A stretch of 64,000 nucleotides of DNA, taken from contig CAYYDG010000002.1 in the NCBI GenBank assembly GCA_964470555.1, forward strand, positions 81,050 through 145,049. The letters are read 5' to 3'. The first letter of the stretch is position 1. Each line of letters begins with the position of its first letter. Made by a program: the position numbers and the translations under genes. The notes beneath the pieces were generated by a model. It made no database searches and was not told where the DNA came from. It worked only from the letters and a program-made list of their open reading frames with translations. Below, one piece after another: positions 4,313 to 34,573 of this stretch. The DNA is from an uncultured Heliomicrobium sp. (GTDB lineage: Bacteria > Acidobacteriota > Blastocatellia > RBC074).

Positions 4313-4395
4313 GACTTTCGTCCTTCAGTCGAATCTGAAGTTGGCGTAACAAAAGCCGGATCAAAGGGGCAATAACCGGCTGGTTGCTTTCAGGA

Positions 4396-5220
4396 TCAGA
4401 AACTGATTTCTTCAATCACATCCAGATTGAGCGTAACGCCAGTGGGAATTTCGTTGTCATCCAGTTCGCTCAAATCTCCTGGCGTTTCGCCACGTTCGCA
4501 TAATGAACGATAGGCGCAAAATCGGCAGCGACGTTCCACCGTCGTCAACTCAAAGCGTGAACTGGCCGTGATTTCCTGCAACAATGATGTCAAACGCGCC
4601 TCGGCCTGTTGCAATGTCTCCGCGGTTTGAAGAAATTCGACCGTTTCGCCGGTTTCGGCAAACCAATATACGAACCGAATTCGTTCCGGCGGAATCGGCT
4701 TGTTGCCGTTCAACCAACCGCCCGCTTTGGCCAGCACAAACGGATAGACCAGCGTCTGCATACGATTGGCCAGCCAATCCCGTTTTTGCGGGCGACCGGT
4801 TTTCCAATCCACGATCAAGACGGTTTCGTCGGCGAGTTTGGCGACGACATCGTATTTGGCCATCAACATCCATTCGCCAATCGAAGCCGTCAGCGTCAAT
4901 TCGGGATACCGTTCGGCGGGAAGGTTCGCCGTTTGCCAGTTCAAATACCGTTGCCACCAGACGCGCAATTCGTCGTCAGTAATGGTCGGCGTCAGCGTTT
5001 CCGCCGGAACGCCCAGCGCATGTTGATGCGCCAGATGATGAAACGCCTGTCCCTGTTGCTGGCCGGCTTCGTATTGCAACGCCTGCGCGGTTTCCTGCGC
5101 CGGCCAGCGCACATCAAGCAAATACCGCAATTCAAACCGGCGCGGACAATCTGCGTAATCCTGCAACGCGCTCTGGCTGAAGACGAATTCGTCAAACCGG
5201 CTGTCTTGATTATCGGACAT
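4396..5220 (-). CDS. PD-(D/E)XK nuclease family protein, Cas4/AddB-like with 4-Cys Fe-S cluster motif
   Basis: N-terminal Cys ([12 protein letters not shown]) plus C-terminal [10 protein letters not shown] (C-x2-C-x5-C), the Cas4/AddB iron-sulfur arrangement. Core ...VDWKTG...K... nuclease motif. Overlaps the upstream helicase gene stop by 11 bp. Confidence 0.75.
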
Positions 5221-26596: not shown

Positions 26597-28054
26597 ATGA
26601 AAAACACGCTTCCGATTATTACGCCGCAACAGATGACTCGCCGTGAATTGATCTTCAAAGCCGGAGCCGGATTTTCCGGCTTGGCGCTGAGTTCCTTGCT
26701 GGACAAAGACGGATTATTGGCGGCAACGCCAAACGCCTCGGATGCCAAAGACGTGAATCCGCTGGCTCCGAAGCCGTCGCATTTCAAAGCCAAAGCCAAA
26801 TCGGTCATCTTTCTGTTTATGTATGGCGGCCCCAGCCAGGTGGATTTGTTCGACCCGAAACCAATGTTGACCAAAAATCACGGCAAGCCGCTGCCGGATT
26901 TGGACAAGCTGGAAACCTTCAACAAAAACGGCAACCTGATGGCGTCGCCGTACAAGTTCAAAAAGTACGGGCACGGCGGCGTAGACATTTCCGAACTCTA
27001 TTCCAATCTGGGCAGCGTTGCCGATGAGTTGTGCGTGATTCGATCGCTCTATTGTCTGAGCAACAATCATTCGCCCGCGATCTTTCAGATGAACAGCGGC
27101 AACATTCGTCCCGGCAATCCGAGTTTGGGTTCATGGGTGACGTATGGCTTGGGAACGGAGAATCAAAACCTGCCCGCGTACATAGTGATGTATGACTGGC
27201 GAGGCGGTCCAATTGGCGGAGCGCCGAACTGGTCTTCGGGCTTTATGCCTGCGGCGTTTCAGGGAACTTCGTTTCGTCCTGGCTCGACGCCGATTGTGGA
27301 TTTGAATCCGCCGAAATGGGTTGATCCGCATTTGCAGCGTCAGGAAATTGACCTGATTCAGAAACTGAACCAGGAGCACCGCGAACAGCACGCTAAAAAT
27401 AGCGATCTGGATGCGCGCATCGCTTCTTATGAACTGGCTTTCCAGATGCAATCGCACGCGCCCGAAGCCGTTGACCTGAGCAAAGAATCCGATGCGACCA
27501 AAAAACTGTATGGCATCGGCGAAAAACACACAGACTTTTTCGGCAAACAGTGTCTGACAGCGCGTCGCCTGGTCGAACGCGGCGTACGCTTCATTCAGCT
27601 TTACCACGGCGGAGGCCATCAACAGGAATCCTGGGACGCGCATTTCGGCATTGACGAAAACCATCGGCTGCATTGCGCTGAAACCGATATTCCGATGACC
27701 GGTTTGATCAAAGATTTGAAAGCGCGTGGCTTGCTGGATTCGACGCTGATCGTCTGGGGCGGGGAATTTGGCCGCATGCCGATGTCGCAATCCGGCATCG
27801 GGCGCGATCACAATCATTACGGTTTCTGCATGTGGATGGCTGGCGGAGGTGTCAAAGGCGGCCAGATGATTGGTGAAACCGATGAGTTCGGCTTGAAAGC
27901 CGCTGTCGAACCCTATTCCGTTCACGACCTGCACGCGACAATCCTGCACGCCATGGGCTTGGAGCACCGCAAATTGACGTATTACTACGGCGGACGCGAA
28001 CAACGGCTGACGAACTTCGGCGGCGATCCGATTCTGAAAGTGTTTGGGGGATAG
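26597..28054 (+). CDS. DUF1501 domain-containing protein (sulfatase-like, Tat-exported)
   Basis: N-terminal RRELIFKAGAGFSGLAL Tat motif, FLFMYGGPSQVD and the C-terminal GRDHN...GGG core, as in DUF1501 proteins of Planctomycetes/Acidobacteria. Confidence 0.85.
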   Translation: MKNTLPIITPQQMTRRELIFKAGAGFSGLALSSLLDKDGLLAATPNASDAKDVNPLAPKPSHFKAKAKSVIFLFMYGGPSQVDLFDPKPMLTKNHGKPLPDLDKLETFNKNGNLMASPYKFKKYGHGGVDISELYSNLGSVADELCVIRSLYCLSNNHSPAIFQMNSGNIRPGNPSLGSWVTYGLGTENQNLPAYIVMYDWRGGPIGGAPNWSSGFMPAAFQGTSFRPGSTPIVDLNPPKWVDPHLQRQEIDLIQKLNQEHREQHAKNSDLDARIASYELAFQMQSHAPEAVDLSKESDATKKLYGIGEKHTDFFGKQCLTARRLVERGVRFIQLYHGGGHQQESWDAHFGIDENHRLHCAETDIPMTGLIKDLKARGLLDSTLIVWGGEFGRMPMSQSGIGRDHNHYGFCMWMAGGGVKGGQMIGETDEFGLKAAVEPYSVHDLHATILHAMGLEHRKLTYYYGGREQRLTNFGGDPILKVFGG

Positions 28055-28168
28055 ATACTATTTCACTCGGTATTCCCCGCGCGTGTCAGGCTATCTTTAG
28101 CTGTTCGAGGGGGCTGAATTTATGCGATGATTGGCCGAAAGTTGATTGCTGTGAGGAGAAACGCATAA

Positions 28169-28855
28169 ATGTCTGAATATCGTATTGAATACACTTCATT
28201 GAGTTCTGAATGGAAAACGACCTCTATTCTGTCGGAATTACCTGTTCCTGGAAGTAGGGGGTTTGTAACTTTAGTTGAGCGGCTTCAGCCATTCGGATTA
28301 ACGGCACAGGGAATTAGCTTACAGACTCCAACCAATAACCTGAGTGATGTCAGGCTTGATCTGGCTTTGCTTGATCCACGAGTCACTATCAGCATCGGTT
28401 ACAGTCATATTACCCTTACGACAGGCGAGATTTATGAAGGAGATGTAAATTCGATTCTACAGATTTTGCAGTCCGTATTTGGCGCAATGGCGGTAATTGA
28501 TCCAAAGATTGAAGAAGGCAAAGGGAGCACGCGTGTTAGTCTTCAACTCTCTTTGCTAGATGAACAAGTTGAGGACTTTCTAGCGCGTTATGCGAAAAAA
28601 CAGGAAGGTGACGTAACTATTACCCCCGACGCTGCTGCATTCGTCGTCAACTGCGATGAGGTTAGCCGGCAGGCACGAACCCGGATCGTTCTCGCTATGT
28701 CGCTTCATTATGCGAATGCCATCTTTTGCGAAATTACCTGGGAATACGAATCAGGCACGGTAGGAAAGCCAATAGAATTTCTCAATCAACTGGCTGATAG
28801 CGGGTTGAGCGTTCTCTCTGTGTTTGATTTACACCATTTTGAAGGAGGGAAATGA
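28169..28855 (+). CDS. hypothetical protein (cassette gene A, 228 aa)
   Basis: First ORF of a low-GC three-gene overlapping cassette. No recognisable motif. Confidence 0.55.
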   Translation: MSEYRIEYTSLSSEWKTTSILSELPVPGSRGFVTLVERLQPFGLTAQGISLQTPTNNLSDVRLDLALLDPRVTISIGYSHITLTTGEIYEGDVNSILQILQSVFGAMAVIDPKIEEGKGSTRVSLQLSLLDEQVEDFLARYAKKQEGDVTITPDAAAFVVNCDEVSRQARTRIVLAMSLHYANAIFCEITWEYESGTVGKPIEFLNQLADSGLSVLSVFDLHHFEGGK

Positions 28856-29364
28856 GTATGTTGGCAGTTATGAACTACGACCTTGCAACATTGGGGAGAC
28901 CCACATCTGTTTTGCCTCAACAGCAGCCGCACTACCAGATTGCGTCACTGAGAGCTTTCCTACCCACAGAGCGAGTCGTTGAAAACCTCACACCTCCAAG
29001 TCGCCCTTTACCCGACAAGCAGCCCAAGCAGGAAAATGGCTCTATGTTTGTAGAGTTACGCAAACAGTTCGAGTTGCGTGACGAGTCTGGCGTGCGGACA
29101 TATTTGCGCAAATATCCGTTTCTGCTCACACTACTGCTCGAAGCGAAAACTCAAGTTGTTCGCATCTTCGGCGAGGGGACAAAGGCAGTGCTTCAAATTA
29201 GTGTTGATCCGAACGATTTGTCGGCCCAGCTTTTTATAGTCATCCCTACACAGTTAAGCGCTAAAGAAGCTTTGGCGTTATTTGATCAACTTGATCAGGA
29301 GTGGTGGCTGGAGGCTACCAAAAGAGCGGATTTCCGCATGAACTTTATCCCGGAGTTTGTCTGA
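28852..29364 (+). CDS. hypothetical protein (cassette gene B, 170 aa); weak MNT-like motif
   Basis: The start overlaps the gene A stop by 4 nt (ATGA). The N-terminal about 60 aa are P/Q-rich. The C-terminal about 105 aa contain RIFGEGTKAVLQISVDPND, a weak G-x-G...D-x-N-D nucleotidyltransferase-like pattern. An alternative start at MFVEL (29044) is possible. Confidence 0.45.
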   Translation: MSMLAVMNYDLATLGRPTSVLPQQQPHYQIASLRAFLPTERVVENLTPPSRPLPDKQPKQENGSMFVELRKQFELRDESGVRTYLRKYPFLLTLLLEAKTQVVRIFGEGTKAVLQISVDPNDLSAQLFIVIPTQLSAKEALALFDQLDQEWWLEATKRADFRMNFIPEFV

Positions 29365-29747
29365 TGCCGTTCGATTGGTCTGATTACCGCCTAGTCGCTG
29401 AAAAGCTCAGTCAAAATGCAGACGAAGCATCGCTTCGATGCGCGATCAGCCGTGCTTATTACTTTGCTTATCATCAAGCGGTCAATCACCTCTTGGAACA
29501 TTTTGATTTTCTACCATCCAAAGACAAATCGCATGATGCGGTTTGGCGTGCGTTTGAGAAAAAAGGACATTCATACCGTGAAGTATGGGATAAAGGCGAC
29601 AAGTTAAAGAAATTGCGAGTTGATGCTGACTACGAGTCAGATGCGATTATTCGTGATGAAACAGCCGCCTTTTCGCTTCAATTGTCTGATCGGATTGCCG
29701 CAATTTTACAGGGCATCCATCGGCAGAAAAGTGTTCGTCCGTCCTGA
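29364..29747 (+). CDS. HEPN-like protein (Rx6H motif), cassette gene C, 128 aa
   Basis: The ATG overlaps the gene B TGA by 1 nt (TGATG). All-alpha composition. SRAYYFAYH gives R-x6-H, consistent with the HEPN Rx4-6H RNase motif. Confidence 0.5.
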   Translation: MPFDWSDYRLVAEKLSQNADEASLRCAISRAYYFAYHQAVNHLLEHFDFLPSKDKSHDAVWRAFEKKGHSYREVWDKGDKLKKLRVDADYESDAIIRDETAAFSLQLSDRIAAILQGIHRQKSVRPS

Positions 29748-29830
29748 CATATTTTCCACTTATTTCATTCAGCGGGGGAGCCTAATGTTAGAGGCTAATT
29801 GGGCGTGCCCTAATTGGGGAGGTTTTCGAA

Positions 29831-31261
29831 ATGAACTCGAACAATCGGTTGTCACGCCGTAACTTAATTTTTCGGGCTGGAGCCGGGTTTTCTGGCTTGG
29901 CGTTGGCTTCGTTGCTGGATAAAGACGGATTGCTGGCGGCGGAGCCCAATCAGCAGAAACGCGTCAATCCGTTGGCTCCAAAAGAAGGGCATTTCAAGGC
30001 CAAAGCCAAGTCGGTCATCTTCCTGTTTATGTACGGCGGCGTTAGCCACGTGGACACCTTTGATCCTAAACCGGATTTGACTCGACATCACGGCAAGCCT
30101 ATGAACAAAGGCAAGGTGGATGTCTTTTTTGGCAACCCCGGAAATTTGATGGCTTCGCCGTACAAGTTCAAAAAGTATGGGCAGTCGGGCATTGAAGTTT
30201 CGGAACTGTATCCGCACATCGCGCAAAAAGTTGATGACTTGTGTGTGGTTCGCTCGGTGTTTACGACCAGCAACAATCATTCGCCTGCGATCTTTCAGAT
30301 GAACAGCGGCAATATGCGTCCGGGAAATCCGTCGCTTGGTTCGTGGGTGACTTATGGGTTGGGCAGCGAGAATGAGAACCTTCCGGCATACATTGTGATG
30401 TACGACTGGCGAGGCGGCCCGATTGGCGGAGCGCCCAACTGGTCTTCAGGTTTTATGCCCGCGGCGTATCAAGGCACGTCGTTTCGGTCGGGTGGAACTC
30501 CGATTGCCGACTTGAATCCTCCCAAGTGGGTTGATCCGCATTTGCAGCGGCAGGAAATTGATTTCGTGCAGCGGCTCAATCAGGCGCATCAGGTTTCGCA
30601 TCCGGGGAATTCGGATTTGGATGCGCGCATCGCTTCGTATGAACTGGCCTTCCAGATGCAAACGCACGCGCCCGAAGCGATGGATTTGTCGAAAGAATCC
30701 GATGCGACCAAAAAGCTTTATGGTGTTGGCGAAAAGACTACGGATTATTTTGGCAAACAATGCTTGATCGCTCGGCGAATGGTTGAACGTGGCGTGCGGT
30801 TCATTCAGTTGTATAGCGGCGGAGGTCATCAGCAGGAATCCTGGGACGCGCATTACGGCTTGCACGAAAATCATTCGTTGCATTGCGCGGAAACCGACAA
30901 GCCGATGGCTGGATTGATTGCGGATTTGAAAGCGCGCGGCTTGCTGGATTCGACCTTGATTGTTTGGGGTGGGGAATTCGGACGCATGCCGATTTCGCAA
31001 TCCGGCATTGGGCGCGATCACAATCCGCACGGGTTCACGATGTGGTTTGCCGGTGGTGGCATCAAAGGCGGACAAGTCATAGGCGCGACGGATGAATATG
31101 GTTATAAAGCAGAAGTCGAGCCATATTCGGTTCACGATATGCACGCGACGATTTTGCACGCGCTGGGGATGGATCATCGGCGTTTGACCTATTACTACGG
31201 CGGACGGGACCAGAGATTGACGAATTTTGGCGGCGATCCCGTGTTAAAGGTGTTTGCCTGA
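29831..31261 (+). CDS. DUF1501 domain-containing protein (tandem paralog of 26597..28054)
   Basis: About 80% identical to the upstream paralog over most of its length, with the same Tat motif and core blocks. Confidence 0.85.
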   Translation: MNSNNRLSRRNLIFRAGAGFSGLALASLLDKDGLLAAEPNQQKRVNPLAPKEGHFKAKAKSVIFLFMYGGVSHVDTFDPKPDLTRHHGKPMNKGKVDVFFGNPGNLMASPYKFKKYGQSGIEVSELYPHIAQKVDDLCVVRSVFTTSNNHSPAIFQMNSGNMRPGNPSLGSWVTYGLGSENENLPAYIVMYDWRGGPIGGAPNWSSGFMPAAYQGTSFRSGGTPIADLNPPKWVDPHLQRQEIDFVQRLNQAHQVSHPGNSDLDARIASYELAFQMQTHAPEAMDLSKESDATKKLYGVGEKTTDYFGKQCLIARRMVERGVRFIQLYSGGGHQQESWDAHYGLHENHSLHCAETDKPMAGLIADLKARGLLDSTLIVWGGEFGRMPISQSGIGRDHNPHGFTMWFAGGGIKGGQVIGATDEYGYKAEVEPYSVHDMHATILHALGMDHRRLTYYYGGRDQRLTNFGGDPVLKVFA

Positions 31262-31685: not shown

Positions 31686-31955
31686 ATGGCTTTAGCAAAA
31701 GAAGCTAAATCAGGCATCATCACGCAGTACAAGGTTCACGGGACTGACACCGGATCACCGGAAGTTCAAGTGGCGTTGTTGACAACCCGCATCACTGAAC
31801 TGACTGAGCACTTCAAAACTCATAAAAAAGATAACCATTCACGTCGCGGCCTGCTGAAATTGGTCAGCCAACGCCGCAGTCTGCTGGATTATTTGAAGCG
31901 CAAAGACATCAACCGGTATCACGAGTTGATCAATCGTCTCGGATTGAGAAAGTAA
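31686..31955 (+). CDS. rpsO: 30S ribosomal protein S15
   Basis: 89 aa, ...[46 protein letters not shown]... Canonical S15. Confidence 0.95.
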
Positions 31956-31999: not shown

Positions 32000-32389
32000 T
32001 TGTGCAGCCGAACGTGACGGCACGTGCTTCCTAAAAAGTCTGGGTTCATTTTTGAAGTCCGACTAGCCCAAAGGCCTACAAGGGAAGACGAATGATTTCA
32101 TCCGAATCCCAACTTTTTCGGATGCCCTCAGCGCCTTCATCAATTCATGGCTGCCCGAATATCTGGGGTTGCCCATTGTGACAGACGGTTCTGATATTTC
32201 CGCCAGGAATCACAAGTTTAATTCCATATCGAAAAGCCGCAGCGCAGATTCGTGACGCTCATCACGAACTTCGCGCTTGCGGCTTATTGTCTTTGCAGTG
32301 GTTGGTGGTTGAGTAAAGATTGCTTGAGTCCCGGAAGAAACCGACACTCATCTGCCGCCATTGCCGTTGTTAAGAGGAGAGATAACAAG

Positions 32390-34573
32390 ATGTTTTTGAA
32401 ACAAGCCATCAATTTAGGAGGTCGGGAAATTTCGATTGAAACCGGCCGTATCGCAAAACAGGCTGATGGAGCGGTATTGGTTCAACAGGGTGAAACTGTT
32501 GTGTTGGTGACGGCAGTTTCCGCGCGCAAGGCCAGAGAAGGGGCTGATTTTTTTCCGCTCACTGTTGATTACAGAGAATACGGTTATGCTGCCGGACGAA
32601 TTCCCGGCGGTTATTTCAAACGCGAAGGCCGCCCGACCGAAAAGGAAATTCTGACCTGCCGTTTGACAGATCGCCCGATTCGCCCGCTGTTCCCAGAAGG
32701 TTATCAGCATGAAACACAGATCATTTCTATGGTCATGTCCGCCGATGAAGAAAACGAACCGGACGTACTTTCGATCACAGGGGCTTCTGCGGCGCTGTAC
32801 CTGTCGGACATTCCGTTTCACAACCCGATTGCCGGAGTTCGCGTTGGTTTGGTTGAAGGCAAATACGTCGTCAATCCGACATACGAACAGCAGGGCGCTT
32901 CATTGCTCAATCTGATTGTCGCCGGCAGCGAAGAAGCCATTGTGATGGTCGAAGCGGGCGCCAAGGAAGTCAGCGAAGAAGTCATGCTCGAAGCCTTGAT
33001 GTTCGCCCACGGCGAAATCAAAAAGCTGTGCCAGTTGCAGCGTTCTATGTTTGAAGCACTCGGCATCAAAAAGCGTGAATTCCAGCCCAAGCCGGTCAAC
33101 GAAACTCTGCTGCGCGAAATTGCCGAAAAATACACTGGCGAAATGCGCGAAGCTCTGAATGTGCAGAACAAATCCAAGATCGAAAGTTACACCGCGATTG
33201 ACGACCTGAAAAAGAAAGTCGTCGAAGGTTATCCCGAAGATCAACCGGCGGTTCGCGCTGAAGCCGGAGTGTTGTTCGATCATCTGAAAGAAGCCATCTT
33301 CCGTGACGACATTTTGAACAATCGTCGCCGACCGGATGGACGCCGATTTTCTGAAATTCGTCCCATTACCATCGAAGCCGGTTGGTTGCCGCGCACTCAC
33401 GGTTCGTCGCTGTTCACGCGCGGGGAAACTCAAGCGGTGGTGACGGCGACGCTCGGTACTTCGCAGGACGTGCAGTACGTTGACAGTCTGGAAAGCGGAG
33501 AATTCAAGCGACGCTTCATGCTCAATTACAACTTCCCGCCGTTTTCGGTCGGTGAAACCGGTCGAACCGGCAGCCCTGGTCGCCGCGAAATCGGGCACGG
33601 AGCGTTGGCGCATCGTGCGTTGGAAGCCGTTGTTCCAGGCGAAGAAGAATGGCCGTATGTCGTTCGTGTGGTTTCGGACATCACTGAATCTAACGGTTCG
33701 TCTTCGATGGCGACGGTTTGCGGGGGCTGTCTGGCAATGATGGATGCCGGAGTTCCGCTCAAAGCTCCGGTGGCTGGTGTGGCGATGGGGCTGGTGATGG
33801 AAGAAAAGAAATTCGCCATCCTGACCGACATCGCCGGCGCTGAAGATCATTACGGGGACATGGATTTCAAAGTCGCTGGCACGCGCAATGGCATTACGGC
33901 GTTGCAGATGGACATCAAGGTGACGGGATTGAATCCGCAGATTCTGGCCGACGCGCTGGATCAGGCGAAAAAAGGACGACTGTTCATTTTGGACAAGATG
34001 GAAGAAGTCCTGCCAGAACCGCGCAAGGAAATCAGCAAGTACGCGCCACGAATCATGACCTTGCAGATCAACCCCGACAAGATTCGTGACGTCATTGGCC
34101 CGGGCGGCAAGATGATCAAATCCATCGTCGAACGCACGGGAGCGAAAATTGACGTGGAAGATTCCGGGCGCATCTCAATCGCCACTGCCAACGGCGAAGC
34201 CGGCGAAATGGCCATGCAGATCATCCGCGATCTGACAGCCGAAGCCGAAATCGGCAAGACCTATCTCGGCACGGTTTCGCGCATCGTGGATTTCGGAGCG
34301 TTTGTCGAAATCATGCCTGGTCTGGACGGATTGCTGCACGTTTCGGAAATCGCCGATTATCGTGTGCGCGACGTGCGCGACGAACTGGAAGAAGGCCAGC
34401 AAATAATGGTCAAGTGCATAGGCATCGAAGGCAACAAGATTCGTCTGAGCCGCAAGGCTTTGCTCAATGAAGGCAAAGGCGGAGGCAATGAAAGCCGTGG
34501 CGAAGGGCGAGGTGAAGGAAGAGGCGAAGGCAGAAGCAGAAGTCGCCGACCGCCTCAGAACGACGAAGACTAA
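32390..34573 (+). CDS. pnp: polyribonucleotide nucleotidyltransferase (PNPase)
   Basis: Start refined to ATG 32390 (RBS aggagag). Two RNase PH domains, KH and S1 domains. The upstream extension in the track ORF is untranslated leader. There is a C-terminal RGEG-repeat tail. Confidence 0.95.
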   Translation: MFLKQAINLGGREISIETGRIAKQADGAVLVQQGETVVLVTAVSARKAREGADFFPLTVDYREYGYAAGRIPGGYFKREGRPTEKEILTCRLTDRPIRPLFPEGYQHETQIISMVMSADEENEPDVLSITGASAALYLSDIPFHNPIAGVRVGLVEGKYVVNPTYEQQGASLLNLIVAGSEEAIVMVEAGAKEVSEEVMLEALMFAHGEIKKLCQLQRSMFEALGIKKREFQPKPVNETLLREIAEKYTGEMREALNVQNKSKIESYTAIDDLKKKVVEGYPEDQPAVRAEAGVLFDHLKEAIFRDDILNNRRRPDGRRFSEIRPITIEAGWLPRTHGSSLFTRGETQAVVTATLGTSQDVQYVDSLESGEFKRRFMLNYNFPPFSVGETGRTGSPGRREIGHGALAHRALEAVVPGEEEWPYVVRVVSDITESNGSSSMATVCGGCLAMMDAGVPLKAPVAGVAMGLVMEEKKFAILTDIAGAEDHYGDMDFKVAGTRNGITALQMDIKVTGLNPQILADALDQAKKGRLFILDKMEEVLPEPRKEISKYAPRIMTLQINPDKIRDVIGPGGKMIKSIVERTGAKIDVEDSGRISIATANGEAGEMAMQIIRDLTAEAEIGKTYLGTVSRIVDFGAFVEIMPGLDGLLHVSEIADYRVRDVRDELEEGQQIMVKCIGIEGNKIRLSRKALLNEGKGGGNESRGEGRGEGRGEGRSRSRRPPQNDED

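Follow-up and report, generated by a model that had tools for sequence, protein, structure and literature searches.

A Three-Gene Cassette with an AF0298-Type HEPN Protein as a Candidate Tripartite Toxin–Antitoxin-Like Module

In a 64,000-nucleotide stretch of DNA (hereafter the window) of an uncultured Acidobacteriota genome, three tightly packed, co-directional genes, termed A, B and C, form a cassette that may constitute a tripartite toxin–antitoxin (TA)-like, possibly abortive-infection, module. The last gene encodes a protein assigned to the HEPN superfamily, the middle gene a small acidic partner, and the first gene a larger acidic protein that also heads cassettes of other composition. 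We propose that the module follows the logic of toxin–antitoxin–chaperone (TAC) systems, with a non-SecB-like third component, a reading to which we give somewhat less than an even chance.

Organization and Composition of the Cassette

Gene A (28169-28855, forward strand) appears in the list of open reading frames with 228 aa, gene B (28852-29364, forward strand) encodes 170 aa, or 168 aa if translation begins at 28858, and gene C (29364-29747, forward strand) encodes 127 aa corresponding to a HEPN-domain protein and putative RNase toxin. These sizes agree with those in a first-pass annotation of the sequence for A and, allowing for the choice of start codon, for B, whereas C had been listed with 128 aa. 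We assign 127 aa to C because 30 of 30 homologs begin with MPFDW, which leaves a longer form from a GTG start at 29301 unsupported. The same annotation reported overlaps at both junctions. The TGATG between B and C is present, but the ATGA between A and B requires that B start at 28852. The alternative ATG at 28858 yields a protein of 168 aa, the length of a 100% identical public record (P0032, whose cluster also contains P0055, GenBank MDX2041012.1), and B homologs use the corresponding start (MLAVM...). Moreover, a GGAGG sequence (28844-28848) lies 9 nt before the ATG at 28858, versus 3 nt before the start at 28852. From the record, the homolog starts and this spacing, a 2-nt gap between A and B is no less likely than an overlap, and 28858 is likely to be the true start of B.

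The cassette has a GC content of 46.5%, compared with a window mean of 53.2% (SD 2.2% for segments of equal length), and its ~1.6 kb represent the lowest-GC stretch of the window (0.24th percentile). GC3 values are 41, 53 and 41% for A, B and C, versus 65 and 61% in the flanking genes, and the GC content of the cassette is below that of the flanks in 12 of 12 related loci tested. The block is compositionally deviant in the direction first described, but the size of the contrast had been overstated, at 40-47% versus 58%.

No Rfam family matches the region 27500-30300, and a search for promoters and terminators gave neither a sigma-70-like promoter nor an enrichment of terminator-like sites. The leader does include a conserved 15-mer, TTTATGCGATGATTG (28119..28133, forward strand), whose 12-mer core, ATGCGATGATTG, begins 47 nt ahead of the first start codon. 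This 12-mer (one variant is ATGTGATGATTG) lies precisely at -47 relative to the first gene in three loci that carry the full triad, namely the window, L001 and L006, and a further triad locus, L002, carries GTGCGATGATTG as its counterpart. It is also present at -47 in the pair-only loci L011, L013, L014, L018 and L019, and the loci that share it at this position have unrelated genomic contexts. The element is a candidate promoter or operator of the module.

Gene C and the AF0298-Type HEPN Proteins

Identification of the last protein as HEPN, made initially from a short motif, is upheld by profile comparisons. C aligns with Pfam HEPN (PF05168) over the full length of the model but weakly, with residues 17-114 matching profile positions 17-113 of 117 at an E value of 0.0086 and a score of 16.7 bits, under the gathering cut-off of 22 bits. 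The match to PADLOC HEPN_IX has an E value of 0.011. When a profile built from 31 C homologs is compared with the PDB, it matches solved HEPN chains over ~90 residues, with E values of 2.2e-6 for 9xbd and 1.2e-5 for 9xbc, which is a Y-to-F form of 9xbd. The family profile gives a non-significant E value of 0.16 with AF0298 (2hsb), and JGI labels C homologs UPF0332. By sequence, C belongs to the HEPN superfamily and is of the AF0298/UPF0332 (HEPN-T) type, and its predicted four-helix up-down bundle fold derives solely from the alignment to the solved chains.

The motif that drew attention to C, SRAYYFAYH (residues 29-37), is conserved in C homologs. Its interpretation as a catalytic R30-x6-H37 does not stand, since the segment lies in helix 2, where AF0298 has T in place of the Arg and 9xbd has Y in place of the His. 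At the canonical HEPN position, C reads L-R85-V-D-A-D89-Y90 with an invariant Arg and no His, and an Rx4-6H motif is absent from this helix-3/4 position in C homologs. Residues E21 (29424-29426), R25 (29436-29438), H57 (29532-29534), R85 and D89 do not vary among the 31 sequences compared, and Y90 is nearly invariant (R85 to Y90, 29616-29633; all codons on the forward strand).

AF0298-like HEPN-T proteins keep the motif Arg and lose the His, often in favor of D. N-terminal to the motif they carry another, strongly conserved His, and their helix 2 has Ex3[KR] (PMC3710099). The upstream His has been proposed as the one that these proteins use instead (PMC3710099). When C is compared with this published description, R85, D89, H57 and E21/R25 provide each of these features, with H57 as the putative counterpart of the AF0298 His at an offset of 4 residues in the HMM alignment. 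C aligns with proteins of this type (2hsb; 9xbd/9xbc) over ~90 residues and also shares with them a helix-2 S(R/T)AYY motif and LR-x3-DY at the canonical position. It differs from these proteins in that the similarity is distant (sub-threshold in Pfam, non-significant for 2hsb) and in that its partner is not an MNT. We know of no AF0298-type HEPN protein demonstrated to be toxic or to act as an RNase. For this reason, and with no His at the canonical position, C may lack catalytic activity.

Gene B Encodes a Two-Part Partner Protein

B comprises a Pro/Gln-rich N-terminal extension (residues 1-64; 28852..29043, forward strand) that is predicted to be disordered, followed by a core (residues 65-170; 29044..29364, forward strand) made of an unannotated conserved domain and a C-terminal tail, RADFRMNFIPEFV (29326-29361, forward strand), that is conserved in homologs. 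In the predicted structure, residues 1-58 have pLDDT values below 50. The tail is conserved yet likewise of low pLDDT, which fits a segment that folds on binding. Identity between triads is 17-50% in the extension, and 63-74% in the core among four closely related triads. Judged from its homologs, the core is an unannotated family of ~105 aa, with a median pI of 4.65 versus 7.9 for C.

A segment of B, FGEGT...VDPND, had been likened to the pattern of minimal nucleotidyltransferases. The segment is present and conserved in homologs, as are G107, D119 and D122, but B has neither the nucleotidyltransferase fold, with its alpha-beta-alpha-beta-beta core, nor a signature of the PF01909 type (G[SG]...DxD), and we abandon this assignment. 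We propose instead that B is an antitoxin that neutralizes C, and that its extension may be a docking or instability element that makes B dependent on A. The B protein of L010 has an unrelated N-terminal domain; an RHH domain considered for it was rejected for want of Pfam support.

Gene A Belongs to an Acidic Protein Family

The first protein had been described as devoid of recognizable motifs, and it indeed falls into no recognized family. Attempts to annotate it by way of 65 A relatives gave no match from Pfam, NCBIfam, PADLOC or the PDB, and A has no similarity to SecB by sequence or by fold, such that the SecB-like third component typical of TAC is not found here. RnlA and LsoA toxins combine TBP-like domains and a HEPN domain in one chain, and the scores of A against them are non-significant. 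The predicted structure of A is of moderate confidence (pLDDT 66).

The family of ~230-aa proteins to which A belongs (111 clusters at 50% identity) is unannotated and uniformly acidic; all 65 members analyzed are strongly acidic, with a median pI of 4.95. S178 is conserved in 100% of the family, His at position 126 in 83% and Asp60 in 86-95%. The clade of the window has Gln at 126, and a universally conserved catalytic set is absent from the family. A is proposed to be an accessory component, whether chaperone, adaptor or sensor, that would act on the extension of B. Because A also precedes third genes that are not HEPN, any link between A and HEPN proteins is not obligatory.

Conservation and Co-occurrence of the Three Genes

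The earlier suggestion that the three genes belong together is borne out by conservation of A-B-C as a unit in at least five distinct genomic contexts. Species genomes added just two more triads, both in ~95% identical Acidobacteriota MAGs. Among 35 independent metagenomic loci found through B (30-58% identity), 31 carry a C-like HEPN gene 0-11 nt downstream of B on the same strand, and all C homologs examined have B upstream. Thus, B and C form the core pair, with the conserved two-gene arrangement that a type II TA pair would have. The order of an acidic B followed by a neutral-to-basic C, with overlapping stop and start codons, is a polarity typical of TA pairs, and the two genes look like an antitoxin and its toxin. 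In one lineage, C is frameshifted and B is intact (L043, L044 and L046; L045 shows the first C fragment alone), and orphan B genes occur in L019, L031, L034 and L040.

A heads a same-strand three-gene cassette in 9 of 9 contexts sampled, with the third gene not seen at P0064. It precedes B and a HEPN gene in the window, L001, L002, L006 and L053, and also stands beside a B-like neighbor (P0171) at P0064. In L054 and L055, A is instead followed by genes for a DUF5678 protein and a retropepsin-like protein, and in L056 by an unannotated pair. The presence of A in front of at least three unrelated types of gene pair suggests that it may be a swappable controller.

The middle proteins of cassettes with A have long, disordered N-terminal extensions of 70-105 aa, whereas in loci without A the median is 34 aa at most (Mann-Whitney p=0.028), a correlation that is modest and rests on uncertain start codons, given that long N-terminal regions are possible in the pair-only B reading frames of L023, L030, L038, L039 and L050 and that L010 has its own N-terminal domain. 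Two loci, L013 and L014, are syntenic with L001 (DUF1501 ... DinB, adh_short) and lack both A and the extension. Their 5' leader is the same as in the triads, with the 12-mer at -47, and an A-like N-terminus is kept (MHDLIEYATPSSE versus MPDYRIEYATLSTE; z up to 6.7). The synteny, leader and A-like N-terminus suggest that in-frame deletions took out A along with the extension. Loci of the L011/L017-L019 type also seem to have lost the two together.

Across triads, divergence of A correlates with that of the B core (Spearman 0.76, p=0.01). Between the window and L001, identity is 73% for A and 74% for the B core versus 89% for the neighboring DUF1501 protein. The cassette is distributed patchily in many unrelated contexts; IS1 fragments adjoin L002-L005, and an OLD-family nuclease gene adjoins L056. 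An origin from mobile elements was considered and rejected, as no plasmid relatives of A, B or A-like proteins and no B in viral contigs were found. Since the module was not found on plasmids or, in the case of B, in viral contigs, a defense role is suggested by analogy only. Literature searches on UPF0332 with HEPN, DUF5678, 9XBD and retropepsin with antitoxin returned nothing useful.

A Possible Mechanism and Its Alternatives

In the mechanism that we propose, C would most likely act as a metal-independent RNase toxin whose active site pairs H57 with R85, aided by E21/R25 and D89/Y90. B, as the antitoxin of a new family, would bind and block C through its folded acidic core and especially its unfolded tail. 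A, a presumably non-enzymatic acidic accessory, would act on the disordered N-terminal extension of B to stabilize or license the antitoxin, much as SecB-like chaperones do by way of the ChAD extension in TAC. If A were titrated away or lost, for instance under stress or through a phage protein, the failure of B would set C free.

In TAC systems, the third protein makes a TA pair conditional and can serve as a phage sensor. To our knowledge, such a role has so far been tied to SecB homologs. The cassette resembles TAC systems such as HigBA-SecB(TA) and CmdTAC in having three genes, in the joining of its third component to unrelated pairs, and in an extra disordered segment that the antitoxin appears to carry only alongside that component. 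TAC provides a precedent for exchanging the third component and for an addiction extension, and segment-less variants do without the third component in both cases, by apparent natural deletion here and by engineering in TAC (PMC5105189; bioRxiv 10.1101/2024.02.24.581848). However, the third component of TAC is SecB-like and encoded last, and the extension is C-terminal, whereas A is not SecB-like, is encoded first, and would bind an N-terminal extension.

The position of A as the first gene calls to mind omega-epsilon-zeta and PaaR-PaaA-ParE, in which a third component likewise precedes antitoxin and toxin. The first genes of these systems encode small basic DNA-binding repressors. Were A such a transcriptional regulator of its operon, it would autoregulate, perhaps through the 12-mer at -47, because B has no DNA-binding domain. 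We consider this quite unlikely: A is 228 aa long and, like its entire family, strongly acidic; no HTH, RHH or other DNA-binding Pfam match occurs in the family; and the putative RHH domain of L010 lacks Pfam support. Furthermore, the 12-mer is kept in pair-only loci, and hence A is not needed to read it. It is equally improbable, in our estimate, that A is an enzyme or second effector, such as a Ser-His-Asp-type hydrolase in most family members, which would give the cassette two effectors or allow A to modify B or C. The conservation of S178, His126 and Asp60 in most of the family could speak for such a role, but the Gln at 126 in the window clade and the lack of any significant family or fold match speak against it, and the swapped downstream partners suit an adaptor better than a substrate-specific enzyme.

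For the B–C pair, HepT/MntA (type VII TA) provides a second comparison, sharing a HEPN gene with a small, overlapping upstream partner and a Tyr beside the motif Arg. On this model, B would be a degenerate minimal nucleotidyltransferase that AMPylates C at Tyr90, next to the motif Arg, with A as an extra partner. The spacing of FGE-x10-DPND is like that of hG[GS]-x9-13-DxD, with G107, D119 and D122 conserved; Tyr90 is nearly invariant and directly follows the motif; the existence of 9xbc as a Y-to-F form of the related 9xbd hints that the Tyr matters; and HEPN-T proteins are classically paired with MNT proteins (PMC3710099). Nevertheless, B has no nucleotidyltransferase fold or signature, C lacks Rx4-6H, and the cassette has an additional first gene. 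We regard this model as very improbable. A further view, which we also find unlikely, is that there is no toxin system at all, and that C is an inactive HEPN protein that binds nucleic acids or nucleotides within an ordinary AT-rich, housekeeping-type operon. The missing canonical His, the sub-threshold Pfam score (16.7 versus 22 bits), the lack of mobile or defense neighbors of the window copy and the stable position after DUF1501 among relatives would all be accommodated. Such an operon is harder to reconcile with the patchy spread through unrelated contexts, some beside IS1 fragments (L002-L005) or an OLD-family nuclease gene (L056), with divergence faster than that of the DUF1501 neighbor, with consistently low GC, with pseudogenized C and orphan B copies, or with a C family in which none of the polar residues at the alternative AF0298-type site varies.

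On the TAC-like reading, a broader and more doubtful generalization can be entertained. The A family might define a new, SecB-independent class of tripartite TA or defense systems in which a first-encoded, swappable acidic protein of ~230 aa acts on the disordered N-terminal extensions of various antitoxins (B-type, DUF5678-type and others) to control them, and this protein might also be the sensor that releases the toxin. Separately, among HEPN-T toxin pairs, B–C might be the first whose protein-binding antitoxin is not an MNT. If the A family does fill this role, "chaperone addiction" would have been invented twice, independently, and three-component antitoxin control with interchangeable "warheads" would prove to be a general design principle. 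An addiction tag and its matching controller would become available as new modular parts, and the A, B core and DUF5678/retropepsin-like pair families would gain a first functional handle. The B–C pair would also allow the RNase activity of an AF0298-type HEPN protein without the canonical His to be put to the test.

Flanking Genes

No mobility gene adjoins the cassette in the window, and neither mobile nor defense genes flank this copy. As first described, it sits between two DUF1501 genes of about 80% identity. Both lie outside the module on the forward strand and are full-length, the upstream gene at 26597..28054 (Pfam E about 3e-154) and the downstream paralog at 29831..31261 (Pfam E about 1.5e-159), with 79% identity to each other. 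The proposed insertion between tandem paralogs is incidental, because L001 and L013 have an ortholog of the upstream gene (89% identical) before the cassette and no second DUF1501 paralog 3' of it. The position of the cassette after a DUF1501 gene is stable among relatives.

A compact three-gene cassette between DUF1501 genes

Three co-directional open reading frames on the forward strand, gene A (28169-28855, 228 aa), gene B (28852-29364, 170 aa) and gene C (29364-29747), lie between two full-length DUF1501 genes that are 79% identical to each other, largely as the first-pass annotation had described. C comprises 127 aa, rather than the 128 reported there, when counted from the ATG common to all homologs; a longer listed form of 148 aa begins at a GTG within B. 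The overlap of the B stop with the C start (TGATG) is as first described, and the proposed ATGA overlap of A and B depends on the choice of ATG for B, existing only if B starts at 28852. The ATG at 28858 is used by homologs (MLAVM...) and by the public 168-aa form (record P0032; P0055, GenBank MDX2041012.1, is in the same cluster), and is better spaced than its rival from a GGAGG at 28844-28848. Under either start, the genes are packed for coupled translation. Public records sharing the three proteins are labelled as an Acidobacteriota MAG, with all three annotated 'hypothetical'.

The cassette has a GC content of 46.5%, whereas the window as a whole averages 53.2% (SD 2.2% across equal-length windows), and it is the lowest-GC stretch of its length within the 64 kb. 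GC3 is 41, 53 and 41% in A, B and C versus 65 and 61% in the flanking genes, and the low GC recurs in 12 of 12 related loci tested. The compositional contrast noted at first reading is therefore real in direction and was exaggerated in size. Of the earlier proposal of a module acquired between paralogs, the compositional part stands, in that base composition favours a foreign origin or fast evolution. The site itself, by contrast, is no recent insertion: in two related loci, L001 and L013, the cassette is already preceded by the ortholog (89% identity) of the upstream DUF1501 gene. Both loci lack the downstream paralog, which shares no more than 75-77% identity with their DUF1501 genes. No integrase, transposase or flanking repeat is found at the cassette site in the window. 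IS1-family transposase fragments (InsA zinc ribbon and DDE_Tnp_IS1) abut the three genes in L002-L005; in three of these contigs they are on the opposite strand and overlap the 3' end of C (L002 4026-4750; L004 1948-2672; L005 1663-2387).

Two ORFs located 3' of the second DUF1501 gene in the window (31686-31955 and 32252-34573) presumably encode, judging from their translations, ribosomal protein S15 (rpsO) and polynucleotide phosphorylase (pnp), which would be ordinary core-genome context.

Gene C encodes a HEPN protein without the canonical motif His

The Pfam HEPN profile gives a nearly end-to-end but weak match to C (E 0.0086; 16.7 bits, cut-off 22), and PADLOC HEPN_IX matches at E 0.011. 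A family profile built on 31 homologs (alignment A1) matches a solved 'HEPN domain-containing protein' (9xbd, E 2e-6; 9xbc, E 1e-5) and, at a non-significant level, the UPF0332 protein AF0298 (2hsb, E 0.16), and several homologs carry the JGI label 'UPF0332 family'. These matches uphold the original HEPN call and not the ground on which it was made. R30...H37 (SRAYYFAYH), initially read as the catalytic motif, was rejected as the active site: it sits in helix 2, and its Arg is Thr in AF0298 and its His is Tyr in 9xbd. The canonical motif position is instead L-R85-V-D-A-D89-Y90, in which Arg and Asp are invariant and the His is absent.

Such a pattern has precedent. A comprehensive HEPN survey (PMC3710099) describes HEPN-T/PF05168 proteins of the AF0298 type that have lost the motif His, often with Asp in its place; a second strongly conserved His N-terminal to the motif is proposed to rebuild the site, and helix 2 carries an Ex3[KR] motif. 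C shares the His loss, the motif Asp, an upstream His and the Ex3[KR], with H57, E21-x3-R25, R85 and D89 invariant in its family. C thus adds a member to an established HEPN subfamily, and the fit to the AF0298-type pattern makes it a plausible, though not proven, RNase.

B and C form the core pair

Conservation of B is confined to its C-terminal ~105 aa (alignments A2 and A4). AF2 models this core confidently (pLDDT 82-91) as three helices, a beta-hairpin and a long helix, and predicts disorder for the N-terminal 58 residues and for the last 12, which are nonetheless highly conserved (RADFRMNFIPEFV). B and its relatives have no match in Pfam, NCBIfam or PADLOC, nor does the B-family profile match any PDB sequence.

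The first-pass annotation had likened the partner of the HEPN protein to a minimal nucleotidyltransferase (MNT), on the basis of a weak G-x-G...D-x-N-D pattern in B. This pattern is conserved and its spacing does resemble the nucleotidyltransferase signature. Because its predicted topology lacks the beta1-GS-alpha2-beta2 unit, however, B appears not to be an MNT on the features tested. The conserved Tyr90 of C speaks for a HEPN–MNT system, as does the existence of a Y-to-F structure (9xbc) for the related protein 9xbd, but with the tests on B going against it we assign this model only a small probability. We regard B–C as a HEPN-T pair in which the non-MNT partner falls outside all annotated families.

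Scanning JGI metagenomes with a degenerate pattern of the B core yielded 35 loci (30-58% identity). In 31 of these a C-like HEPN gene follows B by 0-11 nt on the same strand, and none carries gene A. Since B is also upstream of every C homolog whose context was fetched, the pair constitutes the core unit. Type II-like toxin–antitoxin (TA) systems usually combine an acidic first and a basic second gene, overlapping frames, orphan antitoxins, broken toxins and varied contexts. Here the median pI is 4.65 for the core of the small first protein and 7.9 for the neutral-to-basic second, the reading frames overlap, B copies stand alone in L019, L031, L034 and L040, and B–C pairs are found in many unrelated genomic contexts. 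In one lineage with intact B, a frameshift near codon 33 divides the C-like gene into two overlapping frames (L043 3508-3856; L044 3817-4165; L046 3623-3971; in L045 only the first fragment, 1707-1802, was detected), consistent with inactivation of a toxin. In our subjective judgment, B–C is quite probably a TA-like pair.

Two loci with intact C retain only the last ~45 conserved residues of B, comprising the long helix and tail, behind an unrelated N-terminus (L008 4771-5001; L009 249-479). This region of B may be sufficient for function.

Gene A heads several unrelated gene pairs

A word-indexed search with A recovered only 5 close relatives; a HMMER search across the full set of 1.84 billion representatives recovered 111 clusters at E<=1e-3, 77 of them at E<=1e-10. 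Members are almost all 200-250 aa and uniformly acidic (median pI 4.95, maximum 5.88). The first reading found no recognisable motif in this protein, and indeed 65 members gave no match in Pfam, NCBIfam, PADLOC or the PDB. AF2 produces a moderate alpha/beta model (pLDDT 66, pTM 0.68) ordered alpha-beta4-alpha / beta-alpha-beta4-alpha; a BFVD search returned nothing, and no internal repeat was detected in the sequence. What is conserved is mainly structural, namely an LPxPG..F..L...L.P.G motif and an invariant S178.

All 9 independent contexts recovered show A leading a compact cassette of three genes in the same direction. It precedes B and a HEPN gene in the window together with two MAGs that match it at ~95% identity (L015, L016), in L001, in L002-L005, in L006/L007 and in the much diverged L053 (where A, the B core and C share 35%, 26% and 45% identity with their window counterparts), so that the triad is conserved as a unit elsewhere, as the three-component proposal had implied. 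A public A homolog, P0064, likewise neighbours a B-like protein, P0171. Compared with these two, the 420-aa record P0179 has a frameshift towards the 3' end of A that places A-like and B-like sequence in one reading frame. The fusion may be natural, which would support physical interaction, or may reflect a sequencing error.

Elsewhere the partners differ. In L054 (4693-5740) and L055 (4693-5759), A is followed by a 209-215-aa protein with DUF5678 at its C-terminal end (E 2e-9 to 5e-9), preceded by a stretch resembling an AbrB/SpoVT-type segment, and then by a retropepsin-like protein (Asp_protease_2 match below cut-off, E 2e-4); these two genes may be an undescribed TA-like pair. In L056/L057 the partners are unannotated proteins of 242 and 142 aa. 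OLD-family ATPase/TOPRIM genes are typical of defence loci, and one (AAA_21/AAA_15 ATPase with OLD-like TOPRIM) lies directly upstream of the latter cassettes (L056 2147-3790; L057 1353-2996). A is thus a modular first component placed before at least three unrelated two-gene units. Its family is sizeable and entirely unannotated, and the gene neighbourhoods suggest that TA-like pairs can be joined by a third component of a new type.

Apparent loss of A together with the B extension

B carries 70-105 residues ahead of its core where A is present and a median of 34 where it is absent (Mann-Whitney p=0.028), the latter an upper bound because the first ATG was taken as the start. The extension is disordered, Pro/Gln/Ser-rich and, at 17-50% identity, weakly conserved. 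On visual inspection, its N-terminal part repeatedly shows a loose hydrophobic-Gly...Pro stretch.

L013/L014 are syntenic with L001 (DUF1501, cassette, small gene, DinB, adh_short), and their cassette consists only of a 131-aa B and C. Their 5' leader aligns with the triad leader and carries the 12-mer ATGCGATGATTG precisely at position -47 relative to the first start codon, as do the window (28122-28133), L001, L006, L018 and L019; single-base variants occur in L002 (GTGCGATGATTG) and L011 (ATGTGATGATTG). The spacing of this 12-15-mer, (TTT)ATGCGATGATTG at 28119-28133 of the window, stays at 47 nt both in front of A and in front of a short B. The element, probably a promoter or operator, includes a mini-ORF-like ATG-CGA-TGA. 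A 7-bp inverted repeat in the window (TTATGCG...CGCATAA, 28120-28126 / 28162-28168) brackets the Shine-Dalgarno region of A; its 3' arm adjoins the A start codon and is not conserved in L001, so that it may be due to chance.

The short-B N-termini (MHDLIEYATPSSE, MHSYRAEQTTLET) resemble that of A (MPDYRIEYATLSTE), collinear from Met1 (z 3-6.7 versus shuffles). On the simplest reading, the pair-only loci of this clade would derive from at least two independent in-frame deletions, each leaving the initial 12-25 codons of A fused to the B core, with A and the extension lost at once; an insertion scenario is a possible alternative.

A proposed tripartite mechanism

Our functional proposals derive from sequence, context and analogy. 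C would act as an RNase toxin using H57 and R85, and B would neutralize it by binding, probably through its conserved C-terminal helix and tail, the only part of B retained beside intact C in L008. A might serve as an accessory factor, binding the N-terminal extension and stabilizing or licensing the antitoxin, in which case whatever titrates A would trigger the response. This role for A is tentative, and we consider it somewhat less than probable.

Toxin–antitoxin–chaperone (TAC) systems offer an analogy. Their SecB-like chaperone recognizes an addiction extension (ChAD) that is absent from chaperone-independent antitoxins, and the chaperone–ChAD pair is transferable to other TA systems (PMC5105189); the chaperone also doubles as a phage sensor that can be recombined with other TA 'warheads' (bioRxiv 10.1101/2024.02.24.581848). 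The cassette is proposed to be similar in all three respects: extension recognition, transferability, and a sensor role with recombinable partners. Unlike in TAC, however, A does not resemble SecB, its gene comes first and the B extension is N-terminal, so the cassette may work like a TAC system without being a member of that family. It is best read as a tripartite-TA-like system. The literature and libraries searched contain no description of the A family, the B family or the B–C pair, an absence that is not proof of novelty.

Other roles can be imagined for A. Conservation of Asp60, His126 and Ser178 in most family members (alignment A6, window numbering) makes these residues a possible candidate triad, with position 126 being His in 83% of members and Gln in the window clade, and it is possible on this account that A is an enzyme or second effector. 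An omega-like repressor is disfavoured by the acidity of A, by its lack of DNA-binding domains and by the fact that loci lacking A keep the -47 element. That the three genes form a non-toxic housekeeping operon is similarly disfavoured, given their patchy distribution, fast divergence and low GC, as well as the pseudogenised C and orphan B copies.

Two loci show further variation around B. In the pair-only locus L010 (4357-4460), B bears an unrelated N-terminal segment, MTVQVEIKAETAAKLQAIAASLRLSLDGYLERF, that resembles a ribbon-helix-helix DNA-binding domain but has no Pfam match. In L034 (about 4330-5000), the orphan B is followed by sequence whose translations presumably represent a DUF433-type small protein and a PIN-like protein; if so, this locus would be a small TA island.
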